This document shows, piece by piece, positions 2,531-46,985 of a stretch of DNA of 64,000 bases. Numbering within the stretch: position 1 is the first letter of the stretch; the number at the start of each line of letters is the position of its first letter. Below the pieces are notes generated by a model. It did no database searches. It worked only from the letters and a program-made list of their open reading frames with translations, and was not told where the DNA came from. Source of the stretch: Shigella phage JK36. Where the stretch lies: sequence record MK962754.1; one strand, written 5' to 3'. The translations under genes and the position numbers were made by a program.

Positions 2531-2989
2531 TTATAGGAGGGTAGTGAGCACCTTATATAATGATTTGCCCATTACATATTCCCATTGAGAAGGTTTAATT
2601 AAAGCGAATGCATCAAATTCAGGAATCTGTCGTCCGTCTGGGAATGTATGATAGGAATTACAAACACTGTTTCTGAATTGCTCGTGCTCTACAGGGATGG
2701 TATATTGGAACAGATGAATATTCTTATTGTCTGAGTAATGATGTTCGCCTAGGTCTTTCAGGAAGGCAGGGTCATATTGTGTAAACCCAGTTTCTTCTTC
2801 GCATTCACGAATAGCGGCTTCAATAGGAGATTCGCCAGGTTCGACACGGCCTTTAGGAATATCCCAGCGATGAACTAATGCACCTTTAGGACGAGAACCA
2901 GTTACACGGCCCATGAATAATTCTTTATCTTCGGTAAGGAAAATAATACCGGCTGATAGTTCTTTCACTTTATTTTTCTTACTCATCAT
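2531..2989 (-). CDS. nudE: Nudix hydrolase
   Basis: Nudix box GRVEPGESPIEAAIRECEEETG; position right after e as in T4. Confidence 0.85.
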   Translation of the reverse strand: MMSKKNKVKELSAGIIFLTEDKELFMGRVTGSRPKGALVHRWDIPKGRVEPGESPIEAAIRECEEETGFTQYDPAFLKDLGEHHYSDNKNIHLFQYTIPVEHEQFRNSVCNSYHTFPDGRQIPEFDAFALIKPSQWEYVMGKSLYKVLTTLL

Positions 2990-3230
2990 CTCGGTCCCAT
3001 GATTTGGCCATTAATTCGGACATAAATTCTTCAATGCGCGTTTCTTTAGATGGACTTTCACTATTAGAGACCGCAAGTTTGTAATCTGCAATAGGACAGA
3101 ACATATCAAGGTCCATATTAAGGTCGTCTTTGATTTTTTCTTCTGACACATCTTTATCGTATGTGTACAGATAACTATCACATGATTCTGATTTAATGTA
3201 AATTGCTATACTCATCTCAAATTCCTGCAT
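2979..3230 (-). CDS. hypothetical protein (83 aa)
   Basis: ORF with ATG; start overlaps the ECR codons of upstream gene; no recognisable motif. Confidence 0.4.
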   Translation of the reverse strand: MQEFEMSIAIYIKSESCDSYLYTYDKDVSEEKIKDDLNMDLDMFCPIADYKLAVSNSESPSKETRIEEFMSELMAKSWDRDDE

Positions 3231-3709
3231 TCGGTAATAAAACGTTCAACTTCATTATTCTTGGCCTTTATCTTGTCTTTACGTTCCTGTAAACTACTTT
3301 TAACAAGATTAATAATGATGCCTACAGTACCTCCACCAATAATACCACCAATAATACTTACGATAGTAGATGCTAATAAGATAGCAATAATATCAACAAA
3401 ACCGAAAGAACTCACCTTAGTACTAAAAAACCATACCGACGGTACAAATATAATCCATCCTGTTATCCATTGGCACTTATTGAAAAACTTTTCAAGCTCA
3501 GCTTGAGTTGTTCGTATTACTTCATCGATAGGTTGATATCCATTAATGTATCTGTTCACGATAATACCTGCTGGCTGGTCGATTTTAAATTCTTGGCAAA
3601 TATGATTCACTAAGTAGGATGGACATCCTGTCCAATCTACTGAATAGTATGAAATACCTTCGTTGCCATCGTCTATATTAGACCAATATGTTTTGTTAAT
3701 CATTACCAT
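3212..3709 (-). CDS. membrane protein, 'FIxECR-tail' family member (165 aa)
   Basis: Hydrophobic segments (IIAILLASTIVSIIGGIIGGGTVGIIINLV); C-terminal tail ...NNEVERFITECRNLR shared with 4 paralogs. Confidence 0.45.
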   Translation of the reverse strand: MVMINKTYWSNIDDGNEGISYYSVDWTGCPSYLVNHICQEFKIDQPAGIIVNRYINGYQPIDEVIRTTQAELEKFFNKCQWITGWIIFVPSVWFFSTKVSSFGFVDIIAILLASTIVSIIGGIIGGGTVGIIINLVKSSLQERKDKIKAKNNEVERFITECRNLR

Positions 3710-4389
3710 CCTTCCATAGGGAATTCCAGATAAACTTGGGCATTGACACGAATTTCATTGGTAATCTTTTTAACTCGGTCTGTATTACGAGATACACGTC
3801 CGAACCAACGCCATCCGTTACTAATTGCACGAGAACCAGTGTGCCATGTTTGCCAATCAAACTGAAGAAGAGTACGATCTGGAGCTTCCCATTTCTCTAG
3901 TTCACCTTTTTCAATTTTTTCGAGGACTTCTTTGTGCCACTGGCGATAGATAAGTTCGCCATCAGGAATCTGACTGAACTCTGCAGTTCCTGTTGCAAAA
4001 TGAGTAGGACACACGTCAGCGTTAACAAGACCAAGAATATGTTCAGAATGGTAACGAGGGTTGTCATAGTCAGGTTGTCCTGCAGTAATAAAGTGTTGAC
4101 CAACTGGAATATCAGGGCGAGGAACATCGTCATGGTGGTATCCAGGAATAGCAGGATACCAACCAGGCATCAGCATATGAACCCGAGAATCAAATACAAC
4201 ATGTTGATTAGTCCAATCAATTGGGAGATTGGCAATAAAGCTACGAGTGATTGAGCCACCATTATCCCAAGCAAAACCCAAATCACAGTTAAAGAACATT
4301 GGTTCATTTTTGATTCGGTCATTTTGTACGTTATGTGCAAAACTACCTACTGCACGAGCTTGACTATTAAACACTTTAGAACTATTCAT
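3703..4389 (-). CDS. hypothetical protein (228 aa), His-rich motifs
   Basis: Long ORF in operon context; motifs PGWYPAIPGYHHDDVPRPD and HSEHILG; function unknown. Confidence 0.5.
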   Translation of the reverse strand: MNSSKVFNSQARAVGSFAHNVQNDRIKNEPMFFNCDLGFAWDNGGSITRSFIANLPIDWTNQHVVFDSRVHMLMPGWYPAIPGYHHDDVPRPDIPVGQHFITAGQPDYDNPRYHSEHILGLVNADVCPTHFATGTAEFSQIPDGELIYRQWHKEVLEKIEKGELEKWEAPDRTLLQFDWQTWHTGSRAISNGWRWFGRVSRNTDRVKKITNEIRVNAQVYLEFPMEGW

Positions 4390-4390
4390 A

Positions 4391-4696
4391 TTATTTTCCT
4401 CGGCATTCTTTAATGAAATTTTCTAGATTGGTAGATTCAATAGCTTTTTTACGAGCTTCGGCATGTTCTTCTTCAGACAATTTACATTTATAATTGACCC
4501 AGACATTATGGTCGAAACTAGTCGTGGCATATAATAACAATGCTCCAACGAATAGCAAAAACGGCGATAAGAATACAAAACCAGGAACACCATCCATATC
4601 GTACGCCTTTTGTAATACTGCAACAGAAAGAGCTGCGTAAAAAGGTGATGCAAATATTGTTAAAAGGCCAATTCGGTTGGTTTCGCCTAATTTCAT
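4391..4696 (-). CDS. small 2-TM membrane protein, 'FIxECR-tail' family (101 aa)
   Basis: Two hydrophobic helices; C-terminal ...ESTNLENFIKECRGK; ATG with GAGGAGA RBS; PeSL upstream. Confidence 0.5.
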   Translation of the reverse strand: MKLGETNRIGLLTIFASPFYAALSVAVLQKAYDMDGVPGFVFLSPFLLFVGALLLYATTSFDHNVWVNYKCKLSEEEHAEARKKAIESTNLENFIKECRGK

Positions 4697-4711
4697 AATA
4701 TTCTCCTCATG

Positions 4712-4756
4712 TTTTAATAGGACTACTATAATATAGCCCTATCAGTTTGTACACTT
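4712..4756 (-). promoter_or_regulatory. early promoter / PeSL-like cassette
   Basis: ATAGGACTACTATAATATAGCCCTATC stem-loop (GATAGG/CCTATC-type inverted repeat) with -35-like element; upstream of 4391..4696. Confidence 0.5.
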
Positions 4757-4955
4757 ATTTTGACATTTCTTCGATGTCACGACGATACCCATCACGAACT
4801 TCACGAAGAGCTTCAAGGCCACACATAGGCTCGATACCAGTAATGTGAACTTGATTAATCTGATACTCTACATCTTCTAACTGAGCGAAAACATAACGAC
4901 GTTCTGCTGCACAACCAGGTTTAGCTTTACCGAAACGTTTATTCAAAGTAGTCAT
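4755..4955 (-). CDS. hypothetical protein (66 aa)
   Basis: ORF-track start 4973 is GTG; ATG at 4955 (MTTLNKRF...) follows a PeSL cassette. Confidence 0.4.
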   Translation of the reverse strand: MTTLNKRFGKAKPGCAAERRYVFAQLEDVEYQINQVHITGIEPMCGLEALREVRDGYRRDIEEMSK

Positions 4956-4975
4956 TTTTATATCTCCATTCACTC

Positions 4976-5025
4976 ATTTGTTTTGATAGGTCTATAGTAT
5001 CAACAACTACAGACCTTGTAAACTG
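4976..5025 (-). promoter_or_regulatory. early promoter / PeSL-like cassette
   Basis: Minus GTTTAC (plus 5018-5023) + spacer + TACTATAGACC; variant of repeated cassette. Confidence 0.5.
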
Positions 5026-5035
5026 TTTTGCGAAA

Positions 5036-5992
5036 TTATTTGAAAGGTTTTACCATATGGAAATTTTGTTTGAAACGTTTGACGTAATCGTCGTGTCCTA
5101 AGCTTTGGTACATACTTACTACTTTGCTATAATTTTCCCAAGCGAACTCACGGAACCATCCTGATGTGATTGATGTACAGACCTTTTCAAGGGCCATCAT
5201 AAAACTATCACGTGGATGGATTTTAAAGTCGTTAGGAATCTGTGAACGTTCTAACGCTAGTACACATGATTCTTCGTATACGCCGGCCAATTTGACCATT
5301 TCTGGTAATGATTCGAACTTCTCGCGTGAGGTCATGACTTCAGAACCGTCTTTCATATAAAATGTATACGCTGGACGGTCTGTTAGTGCAATGGCTTCAT
5401 GAATAGTATCATGGTCATATGTATAGATGTCACCTTTAAAGAACGCACTTTTAGAAGTGTCAAGAACCGGGTGAGCATAGTTCAAGGTTTCTTTCTGGCG
5501 TTTCAGCATAATTTCAGTAAGTTCATCGTTCAGTGTAACACCTTTACCACGAAGATACTGAATATGGTTCATAGTCTTTAAAAAGAACGGATTATTTTTC
5601 TTGAAACGATGGGACATCTTAATTGCAAGACACATCTCAGGAGTTGCCCAGTAAAACCCGTTCAAACGGTCTTTAGTCAAATTTTTCTTGGCGTATTTTA
5701 AAAGGTCATAAGAAGACGTGAAATCTTCAGGAGTGAGTTCACCGACTAGTTCGCGAACGTTAGTGAGAGCCGGAACGATGTATGCTTCAAAATGAGTTTC
5801 GCGTCCATTATGGAAGCATTTGAAAACTTGGACATCAGGGTTATCTTGGTGAACATATACACCCATCATTTGATTTTTGAATGCATTCCAAGAACATTGG
5901 TCTGCAATAAAGTCCCAATCACTATTTTTAATAGCGCTAGAATCAATAAGACCGTGATAGTGAAGTGCACGAGAACCAATAACTAACATCAT
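5036..5992 (-). CDS. hypothetical protein (318 aa), possible nucleotidyltransferase-fold N-terminus
   Basis: Largest novel ORF; N-terminal IGSRAL...(17 aa)...SDWDFIAD resembles the G[GS]...D-x-D signature of pol-beta-type NTases (weak). Confidence 0.5.
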   Translation of the reverse strand: MMLVIGSRALHYHGLIDSSAIKNSDWDFIADQCSWNAFKNQMMGVYVHQDNPDVQVFKCFHNGRETHFEAYIVPALTNVRELVGELTPEDFTSSYDLLKYAKKNLTKDRLNGFYWATPEMCLAIKMSHRFKKNNPFFLKTMNHIQYLRGKGVTLNDELTEIMLKRQKETLNYAHPVLDTSKSAFFKGDIYTYDHDTIHEAIALTDRPAYTFYMKDGSEVMTSREKFESLPEMVKLAGVYEESCVLALERSQIPNDFKIHPRDSFMMALEKVCTSITSGWFREFAWENYSKVVSMYQSLGHDDYVKRFKQNFHMVKPFK

Positions 5993-6020
5993 AATATTTT
6001 CCTCGGATTAATTCATTAAC

Positions 6021-6260
6021 TTAAATTTCACGACATGCGATATTATATTCATCCCAGAGGTCATCATGTGAAGCCTCTACCAATGGAACGATTGTACCGT
6101 TTATGTCTTCATTATAAGGGCAAATTGTACAGTGCGCATCTTCGAATCGGATGCCTTTGTGTTCAGATTTTTTATAACGCATATCGAATATCTTTGCAAA
6201 CTTTTCACGAGTAATGGTTTTACCAACCACTTTGGTTCCGATACTTTCGTAATAAATCAT
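6021..6260 (-). CDS. small Cys-containing protein (79 aa)
   Basis: Start moved to ATG with GGAG RBS (MIYYESIG...); contains HCTICP motif; follows PeSL. Confidence 0.45.
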   Translation of the reverse strand: MIYYESIGTKVVGKTITREKFAKIFDMRYKKSEHKGIRFEDAHCTICPYNEDINGTIVPLVEASHDDLWDEYNIACREI

Positions 6261-6273
6261 TGTGGACTCCATT

Positions 6274-6320
6274 TGTTTTGATAGGACTACTATAACATAG
6301 CCCTATCTTGTTGTAAACTG
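6274..6320 (-). promoter_or_regulatory. early promoter / PeSL-like cassette
   Basis: Minus GTTTAC (plus 6313-6318), spacer, TATAGT, stem-loop GATAGG..CCTATC. Confidence 0.55.
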
Positions 6321-6322
6321 TT

Positions 6323-6520
6323 TTAGCAAGAATAACTAGATGATACCCAGCCTTGAACAGTGATACTATTGTGGGATAATGAGATCGCGTCCTGGAGATT
6401 CAGACCTGCGTTATCTTCAATCCATAATGTAACTTCTTCGCGTTCTTCTGTTGCAATTTGGAACAGGTTTTCCAGAGCAGCTACTGCCGTACGTACAGCA
6501 CAATCTAATTCACGAGACAT
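6323..6520 (-). CDS. small protein, 'WVxSSxxC' paralog 3 (65 aa)
   Basis: C-terminus ...QGWVSSSYSC; N-terminal helix similar to neighbours; tandem with 6530..6802 and 6812..7117. Confidence 0.5.
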   Translation of the reverse strand: MSRELDCAVRTAVAALENLFQIATEEREEVTLWIEDNAGLNLQDAISLSHNSITVQGWVSSSYSC

Positions 6521-6529
6521 ATTGTTTCC

Positions 6530-6802
6530 TTAGCAAGTGTGAGAAGATGCGACCCAACCACCAGTTTCGAGGCTCAGGTTGTAGTCGTATTGGTAAACGT
6601 CAGCCCATTCAGCATAGCCGTTTTTTGTACAACGTTCAAGATCGGCTTTAAGATGTCCGGGTGAATGATAGGTTCCACCCATACCATAAGCTGGGTACAA
6701 GTTGAATGTTGTGTTTTGTTTATCAGCAATTTCTTTGGCAGCCTCAATAGCTGCATAGATTTTTGCTACAGCTTCAGCCAGTTCGGTTTGTTCTTTAGAC
6801 AT
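6530..6802 (-). CDS. small protein, 'WVxSSxxC' paralog 2 (90 aa)
   Basis: C-terminus ...GGWVASSHTC; stop overlaps RBS of next gene. Confidence 0.5.
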   Translation of the reverse strand: MSKEQTELAEAVAKIYAAIEAAKEIADKQNTTFNLYPAYGMGGTYHSPGHLKADLERCTKNGYAEWADVYQYDYNLSLETGGWVASSHTC

Positions 6803-6811
6803 AATGATTCC

Positions 6812-7117
6812 TTAGCACAACGCAGAAGACGAAACCCAAGCACCTTCAGTAATAACGTATCCATTACCTTCACGCTTAACATCGCCGCCATTATTTTCAA
6901 TTTCATCTTTCATCCACTGGGATACGATTTCACCCTTAGGATAATAAGTACGACCGCTACCATAATCACCTACAGAAAATGATACGGCATATTGGTCTGC
7001 GATCTTTGTTGCTTCTTCTTCGATACGTTCAGCTTGATTCAGAAGTTTATAAATTGCATCTGAAGCGGATTTGGCATCATTAAACTCTGGTACTTTAATT
7101 TCAATAATCTTACTCAT
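6812..7117 (-). CDS. small protein, 'WVxSSxxC' paralog 1 (101 aa)
   Basis: C-terminus ...GAWVSSSALC; translationally coupled (ATGA overlap) to upstream membrane-protein gene. Confidence 0.5.
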   Translation of the reverse strand: MSKIIEIKVPEFNDAKSASDAIYKLLNQAERIEEEATKIADQYAVSFSVGDYGSGRTYYPKGEIVSQWMKDEIENNGGDVKREGNGYVITEGAWVSSSALC

Positions 7118-7473
7118 TTTCTACATTCCTTAATAAAGTTTTCGATTGTTTCATTTTCACGTCTAGCTAGGAGTTCATTATAACTAATCATTTGAGAAGC
7201 GTAAACCTTTTTATTTTTCTTGTTGTGGTTTATAAAATCGTAGTAAAAATAGACTACAGTACAAAATGATGCGATGGATGCAAAGGCTTGGGTGTACCGT
7301 AAGTCCTGCCATTGGTCTGTGAATCCACCAGTGTTCCCTATAAATCCTAACACAACGCCGTCAATAAGAAATCCAACTAATCCAAAGGCAAATCCCATGC
7401 CAATACTCATAATAAAAATTAGAATGTTCTCACCAAGAGAAGGCCATACGGTTAAGAGTTGAGGCTTTTGCAT
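7114..7473 (-). CDS. membrane protein, 'FIxECR-tail' family (119 aa)
   Basis: Hydrophobic helices; C-terminal ...ENETIENFIKECRK. Confidence 0.5.
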   Translation of the reverse strand: MQKPQLLTVWPSLGENILIFIMSIGMGFAFGLVGFLIDGVVLGFIGNTGGFTDQWQDLRYTQAFASIASFCTVVYFYYDFINHNKKNKKVYASQMISYNELLARRENETIENFIKECRK

Positions 7474-7877
7474 CTTATTTCCTTAACGAATTCCATAGCT
7501 TCTTCATATTCATACTTTTTAACAGCTTCATCATACTGAGCTTGGGCTTTTGCGCACTGAACTCTCCATTCTCTTACTCGAGCTCTGTGATGACGGCCTT
7601 GGTGCCAATATCCAATCCAATTAATAGGCATCAATAAAAACGGTACAATAAGTGGTGCGACGAACATTAATGAAAATGCTGCATCAGACGATATAACTTC
7701 ACTAGAATCTAAAACAGCTCCTATAATCATAAAGATTAAAAATGCTAAAGCTAAAATAGGGCCAAATAGTACTTCATTTGGGATTAATTTACGCTTATAT
7801 TCATACGCCCAGGGCTTACTTGGCATGTATAGGGTTGGCTTTGACATATTCTCTACATTCCATAATAAATTGCTCAA
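7452..7877 (-). CDS. membrane protein, divergent 'FIxECR-tail' family (141 aa; alternative start at 7847)
   Basis: Two hydrophobic helices; tail ...EEAMEFVKEIRCKSLNS; start ambiguous between 7877 and 7847. Confidence 0.45.
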   Translation of the reverse strand: MSNLLWNVENMSKPTLYMPSKPWAYEYKRKLIPNEVLFGPILALAFLIFMIIGAVLDSSEVISSDAAFSLMFVAPLIVPFLLMPINWIGYWHQGRHHRARVREWRVQCAKAQAQYDEAVKKYEYEEAMEFVKEIRCKSLNS

Positions 7878-8439
7878 GGATTAAATTGTTAGTGAAATTA
7901 GGACTAACAACCATAGTTTCATAAAGCGCATCAATAGCACTTAAAGCATCAACTCTTTTAAGCAAAGGCTTGCCTTCATACATAGTTTCAGAATCGATGA
8001 TTAACGTAAAGTAATATTTTTTATTATCGACTAGAACTTCTGTATCGATATAAAACATATTAGACCTCAGAAGCTTATCTCTAAAACCATAATAATCTTC
8101 AGAGCGTTCGCTGATATATTCCCATTCAGTGTTTAAACAACAAACAGACCATGTAGGAGCAACGAAATCAGTGAATCTAATATCATGGTCTGCAACTAGT
8201 TTAGCAATAGCTCCGATATCATGAATCATAATACCTGGGGCTAATAAAGATTTTCTGCTATGGCTAGCCGTTTTCTCGGTGGTCTCATAAGAAGACGACC
8301 AGTACCATTTACGTCCGGTTGCAACATATCGTAATGAATCAACTAAAGACGTAGGTGGATTTACCTTATCTCGGAACTCTTCGAACATTGAGTCAATATC
8401 ATTATTTTGGTTTCGCATGTTAACTCCTTTATTATCCAA
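7816..8439 (-). CDS. hypothetical protein (207 aa) with internal FIMECR motif near C-terminus
   Basis: ORF in operon; ...LEQFIMECREYVKANPIHAK near C-terminus; no obvious TM segment. Confidence 0.5.
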   Translation of the reverse strand: MDNKGVNMRNQNNDIDSMFEEFRDKVNPPTSLVDSLRYVATGRKWYWSSSYETTEKTASHSRKSLLAPGIMIHDIGAIAKLVADHDIRFTDFVAPTWSVCCLNTEWEYISERSEDYYGFRDKLLRSNMFYIDTEVLVDNKKYYFTLIIDSETMYEGKPLLKRVDALSAIDALYETMVVSPNFTNNLILEQFIMECREYVKANPIHAK

Positions 8440-8467
8440 AAGGAGGACCGGAGTCCTCCGTATTATT

Positions 8468-9061
8468 TTATTTCAAAGAGTTAATATATTCTTGTACATC
8501 AGCAGAAGTGGTTTCGACGCCGGCTGGAGTGCCATTGAACGTTTCAACACGAGTCAGAGTGTCTTCGATATCAACCTTAGTCAGTGCAGCGATTTCAATT
8601 ACATCATCGGCCGTAGAGATACCAAGGGCATTGGCTGCTCGAGTTTCACGAATGTATTCGAGTTTGATTGCCAGGTTCTGACGAGCATCGTCAAGTTCAA
8701 CCACCTTACGAGCAATTTCAATTCGCATAGCGGCATACCCGTCAGCTTTTGTATTAAGTTGTTCGGCAGTTCGACGATACAGAAGACCAAGCTTAGCATG
8801 CATAGTAACATCTTGTCCTTCAGCCAGGAGCTTACGAATTTCACGTTCCTTAGAAGCGGCTTGCTTGTTCTTTTCATTAACAAGTTCGCGAATACGTTTT
8901 TCTTCATTAATAGATTTAACAGAAGCCGTTTTTAGTTCTTTGATTTGTGTAATCAACTTATCTGCGGCTGCGTTATACTGTTCTTCGACAGTCAGATTTT
9001 TAGCCATAGCAGTACCCAGTTTAGTGCGGATGAATTCAACAAGTTTCTTCAGTGTGTTCAT
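8468..9061 (-). CDS. coiled-coil protein (197 aa), PspA/IM30-like heptad pattern (tentative)
   Basis: ORF-track start is TTG; ATG at 9061 with AAAGG RBS; long charged alpha-helical sequence. Confidence 0.45.
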
Positions 9062-9131
9062 ATTATTACCTTTCAATTGGTTGTTTATTATCCAATGAGA
9101 GCATTATACTCTGCTCTCAAGAGTTTGTAAA

Positions 9132-9359
9132 TTATTTTTTAATCAAATTGACATAAAACTTGGCGTCTTCGGGGTGCATGCCTTCGCAGTATTCTTCAAC
9201 CATGAACTTCTTAACAGCTTCATAAGGACCACTCAGATTAAGCTCAGTTGTCCAGAACTTGGAATCTTGGACTGAATCGATACGAACTTCAGGGTGGCGG
9301 TTGCGAATAACTTCTTCTGTGTATTCATAATCAACGACATCAATACTAACTTTAGCCAT
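9132..9359 (-). CDS. hypothetical protein (75 aa)
   Basis: ATG at 9359 preceded by PeSL cassette. Confidence 0.45.
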   Translation of the reverse strand: MAKVSIDVVDYEYTEEVIRNRHPEVRIDSVQDSKFWTTELNLSGPYEAVKKFMVEEYCEGMHPEDAKFYVNLIKK

Positions 9360-9365
9360 TTTGTT

Positions 9366-9418
9366 TTCCTCTTGATTTGATAGGACTACTATAACATAAA
9401 CTTACTTAGATGTAAATT
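9366..9418 (-). promoter_or_regulatory. early promoter / PeSL-like cassette
   Basis: TTGATAGGACTACTATAACATA plus -35-like TTTACA (minus); upstream of 9132..9359. Confidence 0.5.
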
Positions 9419-9570
9419 ATTTCAACGTCACCTTTAGCTGCTTTATAACCTTCAGCCCAAGATACAACAGAGTTTTTATCCGAGGATTCAAATTCAGGCA
9501 TTGGACTTTCACCAATATTCACACAGTATGTTTCTTCATTTTCATCGAACCAAATAATTAAAGTAGTCAT
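9406..9570 (-). CDS. hypothetical protein (54 aa)
   Basis: ATG at 9570 (MTTLIIWF...) with GAGGAG RBS inside conserved cassette; upstream ORF-track extension lies within promoter. Confidence 0.4.
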   Translation of the reverse strand: MTTLIIWFDENEETYCVNIGESPMPEFESSDKNSVVSWAEGYKAAKGDVEIIYI

Positions 9571-9632
9571 TTTGTTTACTCCTCTGTAGTTGATAAGTCT
9601 ATAGTACCACCATCCTTGGCGTTTGTACATCA
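9571..9632 (-). promoter_or_regulatory. early promoter / PeSL-like cassette (43 nt identical to copy at 46917-46959)
   Basis: Leader+RBS+start cassette TAGTCATTTTGTTTACTCCTCTGTAGTTGATAAGTCTATAGTA identical at two loci. Confidence 0.55.
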
Positions 9633-10133
9633 TTTATTTTTAATTTTGCAAATTTTTTCTGCTTCAGCAATTGCAGCGTCAATGATGCTTTGTGCAATTT
9701 TATTACTAGTTGACCTGGCAATCACACTAAGAACAATTTCTTTTTCTTCACCACCCCAACCCCAAGTCCTTTGTTCGTGGGTACCTTTAACTACAGCTGA
9801 AACTTCAACAGAACGTCCACCATCAGAAGTTTTAACATCTACAACCCAATCACCATCTTTCTCTTCTACCCTTGATTTATCCCAAGAAATACTAATATAT
9901 GATTCGCCGTCAATAGAAGTCGCCGGGTTTTTCTCTACCGTAAGACCTTCACTTTCCAGCCATTCAATAGTATTTGCGCATAAATCAGAAGAACACCTCA
10001 TCGGAAACCGGCAAGATTTTTCACCTTTAGATGCTGCATCGTACATCTTTTCCAAAATACGCTTTTGCACGTTTTTAAAAATAGTTTCAGCAGATTCTTC
10101 AGATTTTTTATTCAGTTCAGTGTAAAGACTCAT
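9630..10133 (-). CDS. hypothetical protein (167 aa)
   Basis: ORF preceded by PeSL cassette; no recognisable motif. Confidence 0.5.
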   Translation of the reverse strand: MSLYTELNKKSEESAETIFKNVQKRILEKMYDAASKGEKSCRFPMRCSSDLCANTIEWLESEGLTVEKNPATSIDGESYISISWDKSRVEEKDGDWVVDVKTSDGGRSVEVSAVVKGTHEQRTWGWGGEEKEIVLSVIARSTSNKIAQSIIDAAIAEAEKICKIKNK

Positions 10134-10137
10134 AACA

Positions 10138-10192
10138 TTTTCCTCTATGGTTGATAAGTCTATAGTATCATGTCCTTAGAAGAAGTAAACAT
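10138..10192 (-). promoter_or_regulatory. early promoter / PeSL-like cassette
   Basis: Minus GTTTAC (plus 10184-10189) + 17 nt + TACTATAGACTTATCAACC. Confidence 0.55.
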
Positions 10193-10220
10193 CTTTATGA
10201 AATATTTTTATGCCCTAGAT

Positions 10221-10250
10221 ACCAAAAGGCCCCAACCATAAGGAAGGGGC
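10221..10250 (-). terminator. rho-independent terminator (minus strand)
   Basis: GCCCC-(12 nt loop)-GGGGC hairpin followed on minus strand by TTTTGG; 7 nt after stop of 10257..10721. Confidence 0.55.
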
Positions 10251-10256
10251 ATTCTA

Positions 10257-10721
10257 TTATTTAATTTGTTTAGCAGACCAGATACGGTCTTTAATAAGTT
10301 TTTGGATATCTTCAACATACTCAAGGCTATGAGCGTGAGGATTATCTTTGAAGCTATGTGCTCGTGCCAGTTTCTGGCCTTCTGTTTTGATTACTAAAAG
10401 CTCTTTAAGAATTGCTTCATACTTAGAAATAATTCCTTTGGCGATATTTTTTTCTTGAGCTGCTTTAGGGTCTGTTTTTGGCGCAGGTGCTTTACCTGTA
10501 GCTTTCTGGAACAATTCACCTGATGCAGCTAGGCTTTTAAAAACTCGGCTAACAGTATTAGCATTAGTAAAACCTTCGGCTTTAAAATCTCTAATAAAAC
10601 GGAAACGTTCTTCATCAGAGGCGTCTTTGTAAGAATATTTACCTGCTTGAATTGCTGCAATCGCAGCGGCTTTTACATCTGAACTAGATTGTTCAGTCAA
10701 AAATTCAGCGTATGATTTCAT
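10257..10721 (-). CDS. internal-protein-like capsid-targeted protein (154 aa)
   Basis: N-terminus MKSYAEFLTE resembles CTS; followed by own terminator. Confidence 0.5.
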   Translation of the reverse strand: MKSYAEFLTEQSSSDVKAAAIAAIQAGKYSYKDASDEERFRFIRDFKAEGFTNANTVSRVFKSLAASGELFQKATGKAPAPKTDPKAAQEKNIAKGIISKYEAILKELLVIKTEGQKLARAHSFKDNPHAHSLEYVEDIQKLIKDRIWSAKQIK

Positions 10722-10764
10722 GTTGCTTTTCCTAAGTTAATTAACTTATCTATTTATTATTATG

Positions 10765-10794
10765 CCAAAAAGCCCCGACCTTTCGGAAGGGGCT
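10765..10794 (-). terminator. rho-independent terminator (minus strand)
   Basis: AGCCCC-(loop)-GGGGCT hairpin followed on minus strand by TTTTTGG. Confidence 0.55.
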
Positions 10795-10799
10795 AAGCC

Positions 10800-11000
10800 T
10801 TGCGGCAACCTTGTCGGGGTTCCACCTGCTAAGGCAAGTGTTTGTACGAAACGCCGGGATTCGAACCCGGTTATTAAGCAGTTGACGCTACTCAATATTT
10901 TTAAAAGGCCATATCTCGACCATATCCGAACGTTCCGTCAAAAACGCTACTCGGCTTACGGCAAAGATATTTCCTCGAATCGATAATTCTGTGCGCCGTT
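10800..11000 (-). ncRNA. candidate small stable RNA with tRNA-like T-arm (possible species-1/2 RNA analogue)
   Basis: No credible ORF; minus strand contains CCGGGTTCGAATCCCGG (perfect T-arm-like hairpin) and a GNRA hairpin, directly upstream of a terminator; boundaries uncertain. Confidence 0.25.
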
Positions 11001-11105
11001 TCTGCTGTGATGTAAGGGGATATTAATGAATCATAAAGATTTATTAAGACCAGTCCTTACTCAGGGAACATCAGTCCGACGACTTACCGGTAGCGACCCG
11101 GCTTC

Positions 11106-11450
11106 TTATTTTGGCATATCATCAATTTGTTCTCTACGTCTACGCCATAGATTAATCGCTTCATTGGCACATTCTGCGTTTGGTATATGACGGCAATAAT
11201 ATAATGATTCGCGTTTCTGGAACCGATGTTGTAATGGAATTTCGTTTAAAAGGTCTTTACGGTCAAAGTATTCAAAACTAGTTAACCCGGAACGGTTTTT
11301 AAGAAACTTCCAATGTCCGAATTCATTTTGAAAATAGACATAATCAGCATGCTGATACAGCGAATTAATTAACCTATCGGAAATAACTGTTTCACGTTCG
11401 TTAAAATAAAACGTTAAGTCATGAACTACCAGATAAATATTGCCTTTCAT
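11106..11450 (-). CDS. hypothetical protein (114 aa)
   Basis: ATG at 11450 with GAGGA RBS, immediately downstream of tRNA cluster. Confidence 0.4.
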   Translation of the reverse strand: MKGNIYLVVHDLTFYFNERETVISDRLINSLYQHADYVYFQNEFGHWKFLKNRSGLTSFEYFDRKDLLNEIPLQHRFQKRESLYYCRHIPNAECANEAINLWRRRREQIDDMPK

Positions 11451-11468
11451 ATTTTCCTCACTTATAAT

Positions 11469-11544
11469 TGGTCGAGACAGTAGGGATCGAACCTACGACC
11501 TAGGACTTAGAAGGTCCTTGCTCTTCCTTCTGAGCTATGCCTCG
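11469..11544 (-). tRNA. tRNA-Arg (anticodon TCT)
   Basis: Hand-folded cloverleaf on minus strand: acceptor CGAGGCA/TGTCTCG, T-loop GGTTCGATCC, anticodon loop CTTCTAA, CCA encoded. Confidence 0.8.
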
Positions 11545-11548
11545 TATT

Positions 11549-11623
11549 TGGCGGACGTGATAGGATTCGAACCTATAACCAATCGCTTAACAGGCGATCG
11601 CTCTGCCATTGAGCTACACATCC
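11549..11623 (-). tRNA. tRNA-Asn (anticodon GTT)
   Basis: Acceptor GGATGTG/CACGTCC, T-loop GGTTCGAATCC, anticodon loop CTGTTAA, CCA encoded; not in T4's set. Confidence 0.75.
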
Positions 11624-11627
11624 AAAT

Positions 11628-11714
11628 TGGTGGGGAGTGATGGAGTCGAACCACCCGAGTCGCAATGACAATGGATTTACAGTCCACACCGCTACCTCTA
11701 CGGGATAACTCCCC
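11628..11714 (-). tRNA. tRNA-Tyr (anticodon GTA), long variable arm
   Basis: Acceptor GGGGAGT/ACTCCCC, anticodon loop CTGTAAA, long variable arm, CCA encoded; not in T4's set. Confidence 0.75.
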
Positions 11715-11726
11715 TAATTCATAATT

Positions 11727-11801
11727 TGGTGGCCCTGGGTGGAATTGAACCACCATCTGGCGATTATGAGTCGCTTGCTTGAACCTTCCAGCTACAGGGC
11801 C
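11727..11801 (-). tRNA. tRNA with anticodon CAT (Met, or Ile2 if lysidinylated)
   Basis: Acceptor GGCCCTG/CAGGGCC, T-arm GGTGGTTCAATTCCACC, anticodon loop CTCATAA. Confidence 0.7.
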
Positions 11802-11802
11802 T

Positions 11803-11878
11803 TGGTGCTGATTGACGGAATCGAACCGCCGACCTTCTCATTACAAGTGAGTTGCTCTACCTACTGAGCTAAATCAGC
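11803..11878 (-). tRNA. tRNA-Thr (anticodon TGT)
   Basis: Acceptor GCTGATT/AATCAGC, T-loop GGTTCGATTCC, anticodon loop CTTGTAA. Confidence 0.8.
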
Positions 11879-11883
11879 AAAAC

Positions 11884-11973
11884 TGGCGGAGGCGATAGGA
11901 TTTGAACCTATGAGTCGCCGGAGCGACTGCCGGTTTTCAAGACCGGTGCATTAAACCACTCTGCCACGCCTCC
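11884..11973 (-). tRNA. tRNA-Ser (anticodon TGA), long variable arm
   Basis: Acceptor GGAGGCG/CGCCTCC, anticodon loop CTTGAAA, long variable arm, CCA encoded. Confidence 0.8.
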
Positions 11974-11975
11974 AG

Positions 11976-12049
11976 TCTCCATACAAGGATTTGAACCTTG
12001 GACCTCCTGATCCCAAATCAGGCGCTCTACCAAACTGAGCTACACGGAG
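11976..12049 (-). tRNA. tRNA-Pro (anticodon TGG), CCA not encoded
   Basis: Acceptor CTCCGTG/TATGGAG, anticodon loop TTTGGGA; 3' end followed by CTG not CCA. Confidence 0.75.
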
Positions 12050-12059
12050 TAAATTAAAT

Positions 12060-12133
<74 letters not shown>

Positions 12134-12138
12134 AAATT

Positions 12139-12225
12139 TGGTGCGAGAAGTGGGACTCGAACCCACAAGGAAATCATTCCGCAGCATTTTAAGTGCTGTG
12201 CCTTTACCAATTTGGCCATTCTCGC
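12139..12225 (-). tRNA. tRNA-Leu (anticodon TAA), long variable arm
   Basis: Acceptor GCGAGAA/TTCTCGC, anticodon loop CTTAAAA, long variable arm. Confidence 0.8.
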
Positions 12226-12226
12226 G

Positions 12227-12299
12227 CTGGGAATAAAGGACTCGAACCTTTGCATCCTGGAATCAAAATCCAGTGCCTTACCAACTTGGCTAATTCCCA
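12227..12299 (-). tRNA. tRNA-Gln (anticodon TTG), CCA not encoded; 1 nt from tRNA-Leu
   Basis: Acceptor TGGGAAT/ATTCCCA, T-arm AAGGTTCGAGTCCTTT, anticodon loop TTTTGAT. Confidence 0.75.
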
Positions 12300-12368
12300 A
12301 TTATTAACAAAGGCTCTCTAACAAGAACCCTTGATGATAGAGGGTATTAATCAGTGCGATATGAGTTA

Positions 12369-12393
12369 ATAATAACAAATAATTCTTAAAGCA
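12369..12393 (-). promoter_or_regulatory. possible MotA-dependent middle promoter for tRNA cluster
   Basis: Minus strand TGCTTTA + 12 nt + TATTAT about 70 nt upstream of first tRNA. Confidence 0.3.
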
Positions 12394-12396
12394 TAT

Positions 12397-12690
12397 TTAC
12401 CATTTATGATAATACATATTTACGATGCAGTCAAGACCCAAAGGATTCTTGAAAATATCATATTCAAGAGGACCTTTTTCCGTTTCAATAAAGAAATCAA
12501 AATTTACTGTATTAAATTTACGGTCTTCCTTCACTAATTTAACTTGAGAAGATGAACGGTCAATGTAAACCTTTTCAACTTCAAAACATGTTAAAATGCC
12601 ATAATCATCAATCAAGGCTTTAGCCGCGTCTTGATCATATTTATATCCATTTTCAATAGACGATACTTTAGCATAAAGAATCATTATCAA
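12397..12690 (-). CDS. hypothetical protein (97 aa)
   Basis: ORF in minus-strand early operon; no recognisable motif. Confidence 0.4.
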   Translation of the reverse strand: MIMILYAKVSSIENGYKYDQDAAKALIDDYGILTCFEVEKVYIDRSSSQVKLVKEDRKFNTVNFDFFIETEKGPLEYDIFKNPLGLDCIVNMYYHKW

Positions 12691-13277: not shown

Positions 13278-13322
13278 GATTTGATAGGACTACTATAACA
13301 TAATCCTATCATCATGTAAACT
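13278..13322 (-). promoter_or_regulatory. early promoter / PeSL-like cassette
   Basis: TTGATAGGACTACTATAACATAATCCTATC stem-loop; minus GTTTAC at plus 13316-13321. Confidence 0.55.
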
Positions 13323-46923: not shown

Positions 46924-46985
46924 TTTGTTTACTCCTCTGTAGTTGATAAGTCTATAGTATCACATACCAAATACGTTGTAAACAA
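46924..46985 (-). promoter_or_regulatory. early promoter / PeSL-like cassette
   Basis: 43 nt identical to 9564-9606; minus GTTTAC at plus 46978-46983. Confidence 0.55.

Follow-up and report, generated by a model that had tools for sequence, protein, structure and literature searches.

In the hyperplastic regions of T4-type phages, elements that combine an early promoter with a stem-loop (PeSLs) mediate the insertion, deletion and replacement of small open reading frames (ORFs) (Arbiol et al. 2010, PMC2839356; Comeau et al. 2014, PMC4122927). [quoted passage not shown] Arbiol et al. left open whether a dedicated recombinase exists (PMC2839356). Here we analyzed a block of small genes at positions 2979-10721, minus strand, of a 64,000-nt stretch of Shigella phage JK36 (record MK962754.1), hereafter called the window. 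A preliminary description had presented this block as an island of about 25 novel early ORFs and as a place where an undescribed system may hide. According to our data, it very probably represents, in an RB69-like T4-type phage, the hyperplastic region from nudE to the tRNAs, with 18 non-essential genes organized in early-promoter units and linked by cassettes. Its architecture is of the PeSL/hyperplastic-region kind that has already been published (PMC2839356, PMC4122927), and it contains an apparently undescribed gene pair that is conserved across T4-like and jumbo phages.

By its DNA identity of 98-99% to Mosigvirus genomes, the window belongs to a Mosigvirus (RB69-like) T4-type phage genome. 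Over the full length of the block, the identity to genomes of this group, such as MM02, mobillu, JK45 and APCEc01, was 96-99%; parts of the block were matched in 708 phage records, and in at least 128 of these the coverage reached 80% or more. An unbroken run of minus-strand ORFs fills 2979-10721 from nudE (2531-2989) to the rnaC/rnaD/tRNA region, which confirmed the tightly packed block described before. The flanks stand in T4 order: one consists of internal-protein genes, denV, e and nudE, and the opposite one of ten tRNAs, a 114-aa ORF and homologues of rnaC/rnaD. We counted 18 ORFs (O1 to O18, numbered from the nudE side, all on the minus strand) and not 25, each with a sequence resembling a Shine-Dalgarno (SD) site 5-10 nt ahead of its ATG. 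At nine of the 18 junctions, neighboring genes overlap or are no more than 9 nt apart, with ATGA at O11/O10 and O2/O1 and TAATG at O3/O2, in agreement with the translational coupling already noted. The ORFs could not be called novel, since all 18 match existing PHROG families; the only functional label among these is 'membrane protein', given to the family of O2. Pfam matches were restricted to O6 (DUF7277 and DUF7275) and O15 (Phage_FRD3). No match was found for O1-O10 in a PADLOC scan or for nine island ORFs in an NCBIfam scan.

The block had been said to stand where T4 carries e.2-e.8. It contains, in fact, orthologues of several of these genes. O11 to O14 correspond to T4 e.3, e.4, e.5 and e.6 with 35, 55, 47 and 88% identity over nearly the full length, in the same gene order and with the same overlaps as in T4. 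O2 is e.2-like, with 39% identity to the N-terminus of T4 e.2, and e.8 is found in some sister phages. Since the e.3-e.6 orthologues and an e.2-like gene lie inside the block, sequence comparison indicates that the T4 e.x region is extended here, not replaced. The position between nudE and rnaC/tRNA and the strand are those of the T4 e.2-e.8 region as well. In contrast to T4, the stretch between nudE and e.3 is longer by about 4 kb, taken up by additional genes (O1, O3-O10), and the Frd.3-like O15, O16, O17 and O18, the latter with an N-terminal capsid-targeting sequence (CTS), stand where T4 has e.7 and e.8; O1, O3-O10 and O15-O18 are all missing in T4.

Seven putative intergenic early promoters of the type TTTACW/TGTACA-N16-17-TAYWRT, P1 to P7, were identified upstream of O17, O16, O15, O14, O7, O5 and O4, respectively. 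Their −10 boxes read TATAGT, TACTAT or TATAAT. The consensus for PST/T4 PeSLs is TTTACW-N17-TAYWAT (PMC2839356, PMC4122927); the TACTAT and TATAAT copies fit it, the TATAGT copies are off at one position. The promoters are embedded in cassettes of two families, the 19-nt cores of which occurred four and five times in the window where 0.01 and 0.04 occurrences were expected. Six of these nine matches (eight in total without one weak match with three mismatches) are located in the 7.7-kb block, which represents 12% of the window. The repeated early-promoter cassettes reported earlier are thus real and far above chance. An SD and an ATG followed within 15-45 nt downstream of all seven cassettes, and the SD of the first gene was of the GGAG type in five units. 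More cassettes of both families were observed outside the island, on the minus strand at 13320-13278, 13675-13633, 46982-46940 and 1727-1685.

The island cassettes share with PeSLs the size of about 45-60 nt, the intergenic location, the succession of an early promoter, a stem-loop that overlaps the −10 box or lies between it and the −35 box, an SD and a start codon, and the clustering in a hyperplastic region. There, both border individual small ORFs whose gain or loss distinguishes close relatives and leaves chimeric cassettes behind. They also show certain differences. PeSLs of RB49 have a near-perfect sigma-70 promoter and stems made of G-runs and C-runs, whereas the island has T-even-type promoters and AT-rich stems, and three of its seven copies lack the stem. 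To judge from the published work, the RB69/Mosigvirus group had apparently not been known to carry PeSLs; the 2010 paper makes no mention of RB69 (PMC2839356).

That the cassettes carry stem-loops, as previously proposed, was true for P4 to P7 and not for P1 to P3. Hairpins of 8-12 bp around the −10 box of P4-P7 were more stable than every dinucleotide shuffle (z −3.2 to −3.8). Their 5' arm falls within the promoter spacer, their 3' arm on the −10 box or the start region. P7 (4697-4753, minus strand; TGTACA-N17-TATAGT) has a 12-bp hairpin around the −10 box (z −3.18, and −5.2 in a second fold test) and contains the GGAG-containing SD of O4. In P6 (4956-5022, minus strand; TTTACA-N17-TACTAT), the 3' arm of an 11-bp hairpin overlaps the −10 box (z −3.79), and in P5 (6261-6317, minus strand; TTTACA-N17-TATAGT) an 11-bp hairpin surrounds it (z −3.59, second fold test −6.5). 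P4 (9090-9131, minus strand; TTTACA-N17-TATAAT), annotated as a host-type promoter in phage ATK47, forms a perfect 8-bp hairpin, TGAGAGCA/TGCTCTCA, around the −10 box (z −3.69). P3 (9360-9416, minus strand; TTTACA-N17-TATAGT) can be described as a half PeSL, corresponding to the 3' half of the P5/P7 cassette without the 5' hairpin arm (z −0.5). P2 (9571-9629, minus strand; TGTACA-N17-TACTAT) and P1 (10134-10194, minus strand; GTTTACT-N16-TACTAT) are cassettes of the second family, type B, in which the hairpin was not significant (z −1.4 for both); P1 borders an insertion and replacement hotspot. Outside the island, the copies at 13320 and 13675, near the internal-protein/tRNA.4 locus, showed strong hairpins (z about −5.4 and −5.8) with arms unlike those of P5-P7, and the copies at 46982 and 1727 showed none.

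Among the six hairpin promoters of the window, the sequences of the arms differ and the position around the −10 box is constant, which amounts to covariation between copies. As the arms differ and yet pair at the same position, structure and not sequence alone is conserved. This observation bears on an alternative explanation, which we consider rather unlikely: the cassettes would be strong early promoters under selection, insertions and deletions would arise by general T4-type recombination between repeats of about 20-50 nt, and the stem-loops would be incidental, so that the name PeSL would describe the cassettes and not denote a mechanism. It is difficult to reconcile with arms that, in the P4, P5/P7, P6, 13320 and 13675 copies, differ and nevertheless stay complementary at the same position, with folding z-scores far beyond those of shuffled sequences and with the terminator-like effect of the RB49/phi1 stem-loop on reporter expression. 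Other observations speak for it, and they come from the comparison of sister phages.

We compared the island with seven close relatives and with T4. O5 (4755-4955, minus strand, 66 aa), a single-gene cassette between P6 and P7, is absent from phiC120, CCU7, LF82-7 and SQ17. The missing segment extends exactly from the −35 box of P7 to the −35 box of P6, and a P6/P7 chimera is present at the empty site in phiC120 and SQ17. O16 (9406-9570, minus strand, 54 aa), the single-gene cassette between P2 and P3, is likewise absent from ATK47 and phiC120, where a P2/P3 chimeric cassette was left. At the border formed by P1 and the neighboring terminator, phiC120 and CCU7 carry a 1.2-kb insertion with a T4 e.8 homologue (93-94% identity) that has its own early promoter and with an extra CTS-tagged gene. 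The breakpoint of the O18 replacement in other sisters was found at the same border. The comparison phages, SQ17 and T4 included, together show that the island is wholly or almost wholly dispensable. The plastic accessory block split by cassettes, as proposed in the preliminary description, was therefore confirmed by this dispensability and by cassette-wise gain and loss among the seven sister phages, with the qualification that such an architecture had been described before.

Exchange in the sister phages was not confined to the cassettes. O1 (2979-3215, minus strand), an acidic protein of 78 aa (phrog_2900) homologous to RB69ORF130c, overlaps O2 by ATGA and nudE by 11 nt, and the sequence GAGATGA is common to the O2/O1 and O1/nudE overlap junctions (2985-2999 and 3210-3220; SQ17 6985-7025). 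As the crossover that removed O1 fell in this GAGATGA, translational-coupling junctions are also deletion sites. The mosaic structure of O17 (9630-10133, minus strand, 167 aa) points to a further breakpoint, this one inside a coding sequence: residues 1-92 and 92-167 match two different PHROGs, and in CCU7 and LF82-7 the second half is swapped for an unrelated short tail. O2 is split or truncated in mobillu, LF82-7 and SQ17.

From these data we propose the following model. Just after infection, host sigma-70 RNA polymerase would most likely transcribe the genes from the seven T-even-type early promoters, to judge by their agreement with the consensus. The transcription units would be O17, O16, O15, O14 (continuing after an intrinsic terminator into O13-O8), O7-O6, O5 and O4-O1, the last one running on into nudE. 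O18 would stand alone between two terminators. In all, there would be about eight units. Overlapping stop and start codons would couple translation within the units, and the GGAG-type SDs mentioned above would make the first genes of five units likely targets of RegB. In four promoters, the spacer and the −10/start-site region form the PeSL hairpin, the other three being promoter-only half cassettes. Because these 40-60-nt repeats sit exactly at gene borders, the cassettes may act as portable linkers: a crossover between neighboring cassettes would remove or insert a single gene while the expression of its neighbors is left undisturbed, as the exchange of O5 and O16 exemplifies. The repeats would provide the homology for the recombination system of the phage. 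By analogy with RB49/phi1, the hairpins might attenuate or process read-through RNA.

Several points weigh against this model. The sequence following the PeSL hairpins is A-rich and not U-rich, so that they are not canonical intrinsic terminators, and the proposed attenuation is borrowed from the RB49/phi1 work. Promoter use and early timing are deduced from the consensus. The three cassettes P1-P3 had no significant hairpin against dinucleotide shuffles (z −0.5 to −1.4). Furthermore, three deletions in sister phages did not use a PeSL: an internal one in O11 (7207-7456) in phiC120, CCU7 and LF82-7, the precise removal of O1 in SQ17 by the 7-nt GAGATGA microhomology, and the loss in SQ17 of 6855-12438, 5.6 kb from O10 to the tRNAs. 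Recombination at the cassettes could be ordinary homologous recombination in which the hairpin has no special role. It is here that incidental stem-loops find their arguments: P1-P3 serve as exchange borders without a significant hairpin, crossovers were located at the −35 box or in the TATCAA start region and not in the stem, other deletions occurred through the 7-nt microhomology at gene starts, and a dedicated recombinase was left open by Arbiol et al. themselves. We nevertheless retain PeSL-type linkers as the more probable explanation.

Two terminators complete the regulatory inventory. An intrinsic-terminator-like hairpin at 8442-8459 (minus strand), GGAGGACTCCGGTCCTCC followed by TTTT, lies between O14 and O13 (z −2.3) and is annotated as a terminator in ATK47. 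A second one at 10219-10250 (minus strand) follows O18 and is an 81% direct repeat of the terminator at 10762-10793, so that two related terminators bracket O18. We also observed that the linker TTTTGGTATCTAGG after the O18 terminator recurs beside inserted modules in sister phages (phiC120 9240-9300). These repeats of TTTTGGTATCTAGG and the terminator suggest, at the sequence level, a second, terminator-based type of linker besides the PeSLs. Neither MotA boxes or middle promoters nor TATAAATA late promoters were found inside the island, and the RNA families detected in an Rfam scan were tRNAs only, located outside it.

What do the linked genes have in common? The cargo is a heterogeneous collection and not one system. 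O2 (e.2-like), the e.3-e.6 orthologues, O3, O6 and the small proteins O8-O10, discussed below as W-SS-C proteins, belong to an old, widely conserved subset, and O1, O5, O16, O17 and the CTS-tagged O18 are young swap-in cassettes. With T4 ipIII, nrdC.5 and tifA as precedents (PMC9391042), the genes of the island may reasonably be expected, by analogy, to serve host takeover or anti-defence, or host-specific adaptation or counter-defence as do ipIII and nrdC.5.

That the whole island constitutes one coherent multi-gene host-takeover or anti-defence system is very improbable and already largely refuted by the patterns of presence and absence. Genes were gained and lost independently among the sister phages, T4 retains only e.2-e.6 of the set, half of the island is gone in SQ17, O3 and O6 part company outside T4-like genomes, and the scans of PADLOC (O1-O10) and NCBIfam (nine ORFs) returned no match. 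A unifying element would be the common orientation of all genes and their early type, together with a C-terminal tail motif, F-[IV]-x-[ED]-C-R. The latter was found as F-[IV]-x-E-C-R at the C-termini of O2 (3220-3241), O4 (4397-4417), O11 (7116-7137) and O13 (7848-7869) and in a shifted, degenerate version in O12 (7452-7490), all on the minus strand. In the six-frame translation of the 64 kb, the strict motif had four matches, all of them in the island, against 0.19 expected. O2 (3212-3703, minus strand, about 163 aa, phrog_2203) has a K/R-rich tail ending in FITECRNLR, and O4 (4391-4696, minus strand, 101 aa), with two transmembrane segments, ends in NFIKECRGK. The e.3 orthologue O11 (7114-7473, minus strand) ends in NFIKECRK, and the e.4 orthologue O12 (7452-7847, minus strand), with two transmembrane segments, ends in FVKEIRCKSLNS. 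O2, O4, O11 and O12 are the membrane proteins of the island, the presence of which had been correctly recognized. The e.5 orthologue O13 (7816-8418, minus strand), which overlaps the start of O12, is soluble and has the sequence FIMECRE close to its C-terminus.

The tail motif always stands a few codons ahead of the start of the next gene and partly encodes its SD. It looks as if it acted at the protein level, because T4 e.3, e.4 and e.5 keep it with different codons (TTT/TTC, GAA/GAT, TGC/TGT, AGG/AGA/CGA). It might serve cytoplasmic tails as a shared tag for interaction or turnover, or else result from a constraint imposed by the overlapping translation-initiation region.

A more specific content of the island concerns O6 and the proteins O8, O9 and O10. 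The nearest analogy for these genes is MenAT1 of M. tuberculosis, where the small antitoxin gene for the 68-aa MenA1 lies upstream of the tRNA nucleotidyltransferase MenT1 (PMC10435456). O6 (5036-5992, minus strand, 318 aa) has an N-terminal domain (DUF7277) with a MenT/ANT-like nucleotidyltransferase fold and invariant residues G6, S7, D25xD27 and E69, followed by a conserved helical domain of 190 aa (DUF7275) with, among others, invariant H128, H174, D193, H194, D195 and H198. It thus combines a Pol-beta-type nucleotidyltransferase fold with the hG[GS] and [DE]x[DE] motifs, and MenT1 is its best structural neighbor. The Pfam scan gave DUF7277 and DUF7275 and no match to DUF1814/AbiEii, and PDB chains gave no sequence match, even by profile. 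O6 is restricted to phages; a scan of bacterial genomes returned five metagenome-assembled contigs only, which offer no cellular context as a guide to its function. An assignment of O6 as RlaP, the RNA-ligase-associated nucleotidyltransferase, was rejected as there was no RlaP match in Pfam. RNA-repair genes (PNKP, an ATP-dependent ligase, Rnl1, an RNA_ligase-family gene) were seen within a few kb of the O6 homologue in several distant phages, though not consistently; this hints, if weakly, at an action of O6 on RNA ends.

O8 (6323-6520, 65 aa), O9 (6530-6802, 90 aa) and O10 (6812-7117, 101 aa), all on the minus strand, are tandem acidic paralogues (phrog_899, phrog_4882) that end in G-W-V-[SA]-S-S-x-x-C-COOH. 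Together with the proteins sharing the tail motif described above, they account for the two paralogous or motif-sharing families that had been noted. A profile search collected 334 representative clusters at 50% identity for the W-SS-C family, with a median of 84 aa, an isoelectric point (pI) of 4.5 and the tail consensus G-W-x-[SAP]-S-S-x-x-Cys-COOH. Tryptophan at −7, serine at −4 and −3 and the terminal cysteine were shared by about 180 of the 197 small representatives. In one subfamily, a second, internal copy of the motif is present. O7 (6021-6260, minus strand, 79 aa), the first gene of the P5 unit and located directly upstream of O6, is a small Cys/His protein with an FEDAHC..CPY motif. 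BLAST single-linkage joined it to the W-SS-C proteins; with an hhalign probability of 13%, it was not accepted as a diverged member and represents a separate family.

The W-SS-C genes and O6 are linked well beyond the T4-like phages. We fetched 88 loci through O6 homologues with 98 to 36% identity; they came from T4-like phages, from genomes of about 150 kb and from jumbo phages of up to 370 kb. A W-SS-C ORF was present in 80 of these loci and in 29 of 34 O6 lineages. When ORFs of the same strand were counted, 210 of 217 motif ORFs lay upstream of O6, at a median distance of 789 nt, and a locus had one to four copies; a scan of both strands found no antisense W-SS-C ORF at the O6 loci. In pairs of loci whose O6 proteins are less than 50% identical, 75% share the W-SS-C family and the median number of other shared families is 0. 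The next commonest neighbors of O6 (e.6, nudE, lysozyme and O3) occurred in 25-33 loci and reflect T4-like synteny only. In the reverse direction, six W-SS-C profile matches were picked without regard to context, and an O6 homologue was found 12-688 nt downstream in all five informative contigs, the sixth ending after the W-SS-C gene. Such a reciprocal linkage, outlasting the loss of gene order, is the usual signature of a functional partnership. Judging from Pfam, PHROGs, PADLOC, NCBIfam, PDB and the searchable literature, the pair is apparently undescribed beyond its DUF names. The idea that an undescribed system may hide in the block is partly borne out by this conserved gene pair; the island itself is mostly of a known kind.

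Tentatively, and with slightly less than even confidence, we suggest that the O8-O10 family and O6 form a phage-restricted functional module across T4-like and jumbo phages. Genomic linkage was observed, whereas the chemistry is all inferred. In the most specific version, O6 would transfer a nucleotide to the serine or cysteine of the tail, either as a regulatory NMPylation of the protein or to initiate a tail modification resembling that of ribosomally synthesized and post-translationally modified peptides; with its invariant Ser-Ser/Cys, the tail would lend itself to covalent modification. In a milder version, a pair similar to MenAT1, the small proteins would gate an RNA- or tRNA-directed nucleotidyltransferase for host takeover or tRNA repair. 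The likeness to MenAT1, as the nearest analogy, lies in the GS/DxD/acidic catalytic set of O6 and in small acidic proteins, here of 65-100 aa, that are encoded upstream on the same strand. As regards the addition of nucleotides to tRNA 3' ends, toxicity and neutralization by a cognate antitoxin encoded upstream, which characterize MenT toxins, the analogy is one of gene order only. Unlike MenT1, O6 lacks a match to DUF1814 with its C-terminal motifs III and IV, has the extra 190-aa DUF7275 domain and belongs to a family restricted to phages. The W-SS-C proteins have an invariant W-x-S-S-S-x-x-C end, occur in one to four copies that other ORFs often part from O6, and bear no relation to MenA1; no sequence similarity was detected to MenA1 or to any PDB chain.

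One may go further and regard this two-part module as the key content of the block, with the W-SS-C proteins as substrates, regulators or adaptors of O6 and the rest of the island as passenger. O6 might, for example, nucleotidylate the Ser-Ser/Cys tail, or the small proteins might restrain O6 as MenA1 does MenT1. We hold this for nearly, though not quite, an even proposition. The conservation of the linkage in both directions, the nearly invariant tail motif, the invariant catalytic residues of O6 and the small antitoxin gene upstream of its best structural neighbor MenT1 argue for it. Linkage, however, is not function. In the window, P5 and O7 separate O8-O10 from O6 and put them in different transcription units, 8 of the 88 O6 loci have no motif ORF, and neither partner has a sequence relative in the corresponding MenAT1 or AbiEii families or in PDB. 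The internal motif copy in one subfamily means that a free C-terminal carboxylate is not required. We keep the hyperplastic region with its exchangeable genes as the explanation of the block as a whole.

The second candidate enzyme is O3 (3703-4389, minus strand, 228 aa). It is predicted to be a PhyH-type Fe(II)/2-oxoglutarate dioxygenase with a double-stranded beta-helix fold. It is strongly conserved, with at least 69% identity in the best 120 of 1287 matches, and H85, H86, D87, D88, H183, R194 and R198 are invariant. Its AlphaFold2 model (pLDDT 90.1) gave about 50 Foldseek matches, all listed ones being 2-oxoglutarate oxygenases, mostly with a probability of 0.9-1.0. The probability reached 0.97-1.0 for SptF, HygX, GriE, ColD and EctD. 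The E-values of the matches, however, were about 1e-3 and the TM-scores 0.3-0.4. One UniRef cluster of O3 relatives is named 'phytanoyl-CoA dioxygenase family'. O3 resembles PhyH-type dioxygenases (SptF, HygX, GriE, EctD, proline hydroxylases) by the fold match, and its invariant HHDD...H...R residues may correspond to their HxD/E...H iron triad and 2-oxoglutarate-binding basic residue. It differs from them by the lack of a Pfam match and by TM-scores of only 0.3-0.4.

A role of O3 in the hypermodification of RB69 DNA (arabinosyl-5-hydroxycytosine) was considered and discarded, as the published pathway names no dioxygenase and neither ORF132 nor ORF134. The RB69 hypermodification genes gp48 and gp52:53 fall outside the RB69 ORF numbers of the island (about 130-150). 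Outside T4-like phages, O3 homologues with about 70-77% identity were observed in the Klebsiella contig ERR5464242_44 (5001-5690) and in a second contig (5001-5693). The former, 98 kb long, has Rep3, RecA and SbcCD-like genes and looks like a plasmid or phage-plasmid, the latter represents a different, phage-like context. A functional pairing of O3 and O6 was also considered, the two being direct or close neighbors in T4-like phages, but O3 homologues occur in the Klebsiella plasmid-like and other contigs without O6, and a jumbo-phage O6 has no O3 beside it, which leaves synteny only.

At the other end of the island, O18 (10257-10721, minus strand, 154 aa) is a basic protein (pI 9.5) with an N-terminal capsid-targeting-like sequence, as noted in the preliminary description. 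It starts with MKSYAEFLTE followed by Q and contains an L-x-E site; T4 IPII and IPIII start with MKTYQEFIAE followed by A. The prohead protease gp21 of T4 cleaves at (L/I)-x-E sites. In HY126 and LF82-7, a 208-aa protein starting with MYTFNEFLAE stands in place of O18, and the extra protein of phiC120 and CCU7 has 187 aa and starts with MKTYAEFLTE. By sequence, then, O18 is a CTS-tagged protein, and its locus exchanges one CTS-tagged allele for another. The T4 internal proteins have polymorphic loci as well (Repoila 1994, as cited in the PeSL literature; PMC9391042). O18 resembles IPI, IPII and IPIII in its CTS, its L-x-E site, its small size and basic character and its position between repeated regulatory elements at a polymorphic locus. 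It differs in that this locus lies between the e.x genes and rnaC and not at one of the two classical internal-protein loci, and in that no perfect late promoter is found upstream. By analogy with the T4 proteins, O18 would be expected to be packaged in the head, cleaved and injected. Four more CTS genes of the type MK(T/M)Y(Q/K/S)EF(I/L) were observed on the minus strand at 258-587, 613-927, 991-1251 and 1730-2026. They flank denV, upstream of e, at the classical internal-protein locus, with an allele set unlike T4 ipII/ipIII.

Few other features remain to be mentioned. O14 (8468-9061, minus strand), the e.6 orthologue, is helical and Cys-free. A label 'shock protein A' in one Klebsiella phage record had raised the possibility of a PspA-like protein, which was dismissed as there was no Pfam match even at E ≤10 and no PDB relative. 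The label 'sulfurtransferase' in JK45/F31 is attached to the e.4 membrane protein and was taken as annotation noise. O15 (9132-9359, minus strand, 75 aa) belongs to the Frd.3 family, matching Phage_FRD3 (PF05798) over profile positions 1-75 of 75 with an E-value of 1.3e-38 and 131.7 bits (cut-off 28.1). Literature searches on DUF7275/DUF7277 and on the functions of the T4 e.x genes yielded nothing useful. Two plus-strand ORFs, 8417-8935 (172 aa) and 9616-10125 (169 aa), lie antisense to O14 and O17; with openness as their sole support, they are most likely shadow ORFs. Beyond the island, the rnaC/rnaD homologues (10762-11111 and 11106-11450) are 92% identical to T4, far above the neighboring proteins, and the 114-aa ORF between them and tRNA-Arg resembles RB69ORF150c. 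The tRNA cluster has ten genes, among them Asn, Tyr and Met, where T4 has eight, and there is no segB.

In conclusion, the island adds the RB69/Mosigvirus group to the phages with PeSL-type linkers that visibly shuffle single genes, and the O5, O16 and O18 loci are clean examples that could be used to measure such recombination. The O18 locus with its swapping alleles is, by analogy, a candidate for a first-response anti-defence function. Further candidates are the membrane proteins with a common tail motif, which is also found in T4 e.3-e.5, and the two strongly conserved enzymes. The top candidate is the reciprocal and widely conserved pair of W-SS-C proteins and a MenT-like nucleotidyltransferase. 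If it is indeed a pair of substrate and enzyme or of inhibitor and enzyme, it would represent a new and widespread piece of the biology of T4-like and jumbo phages.

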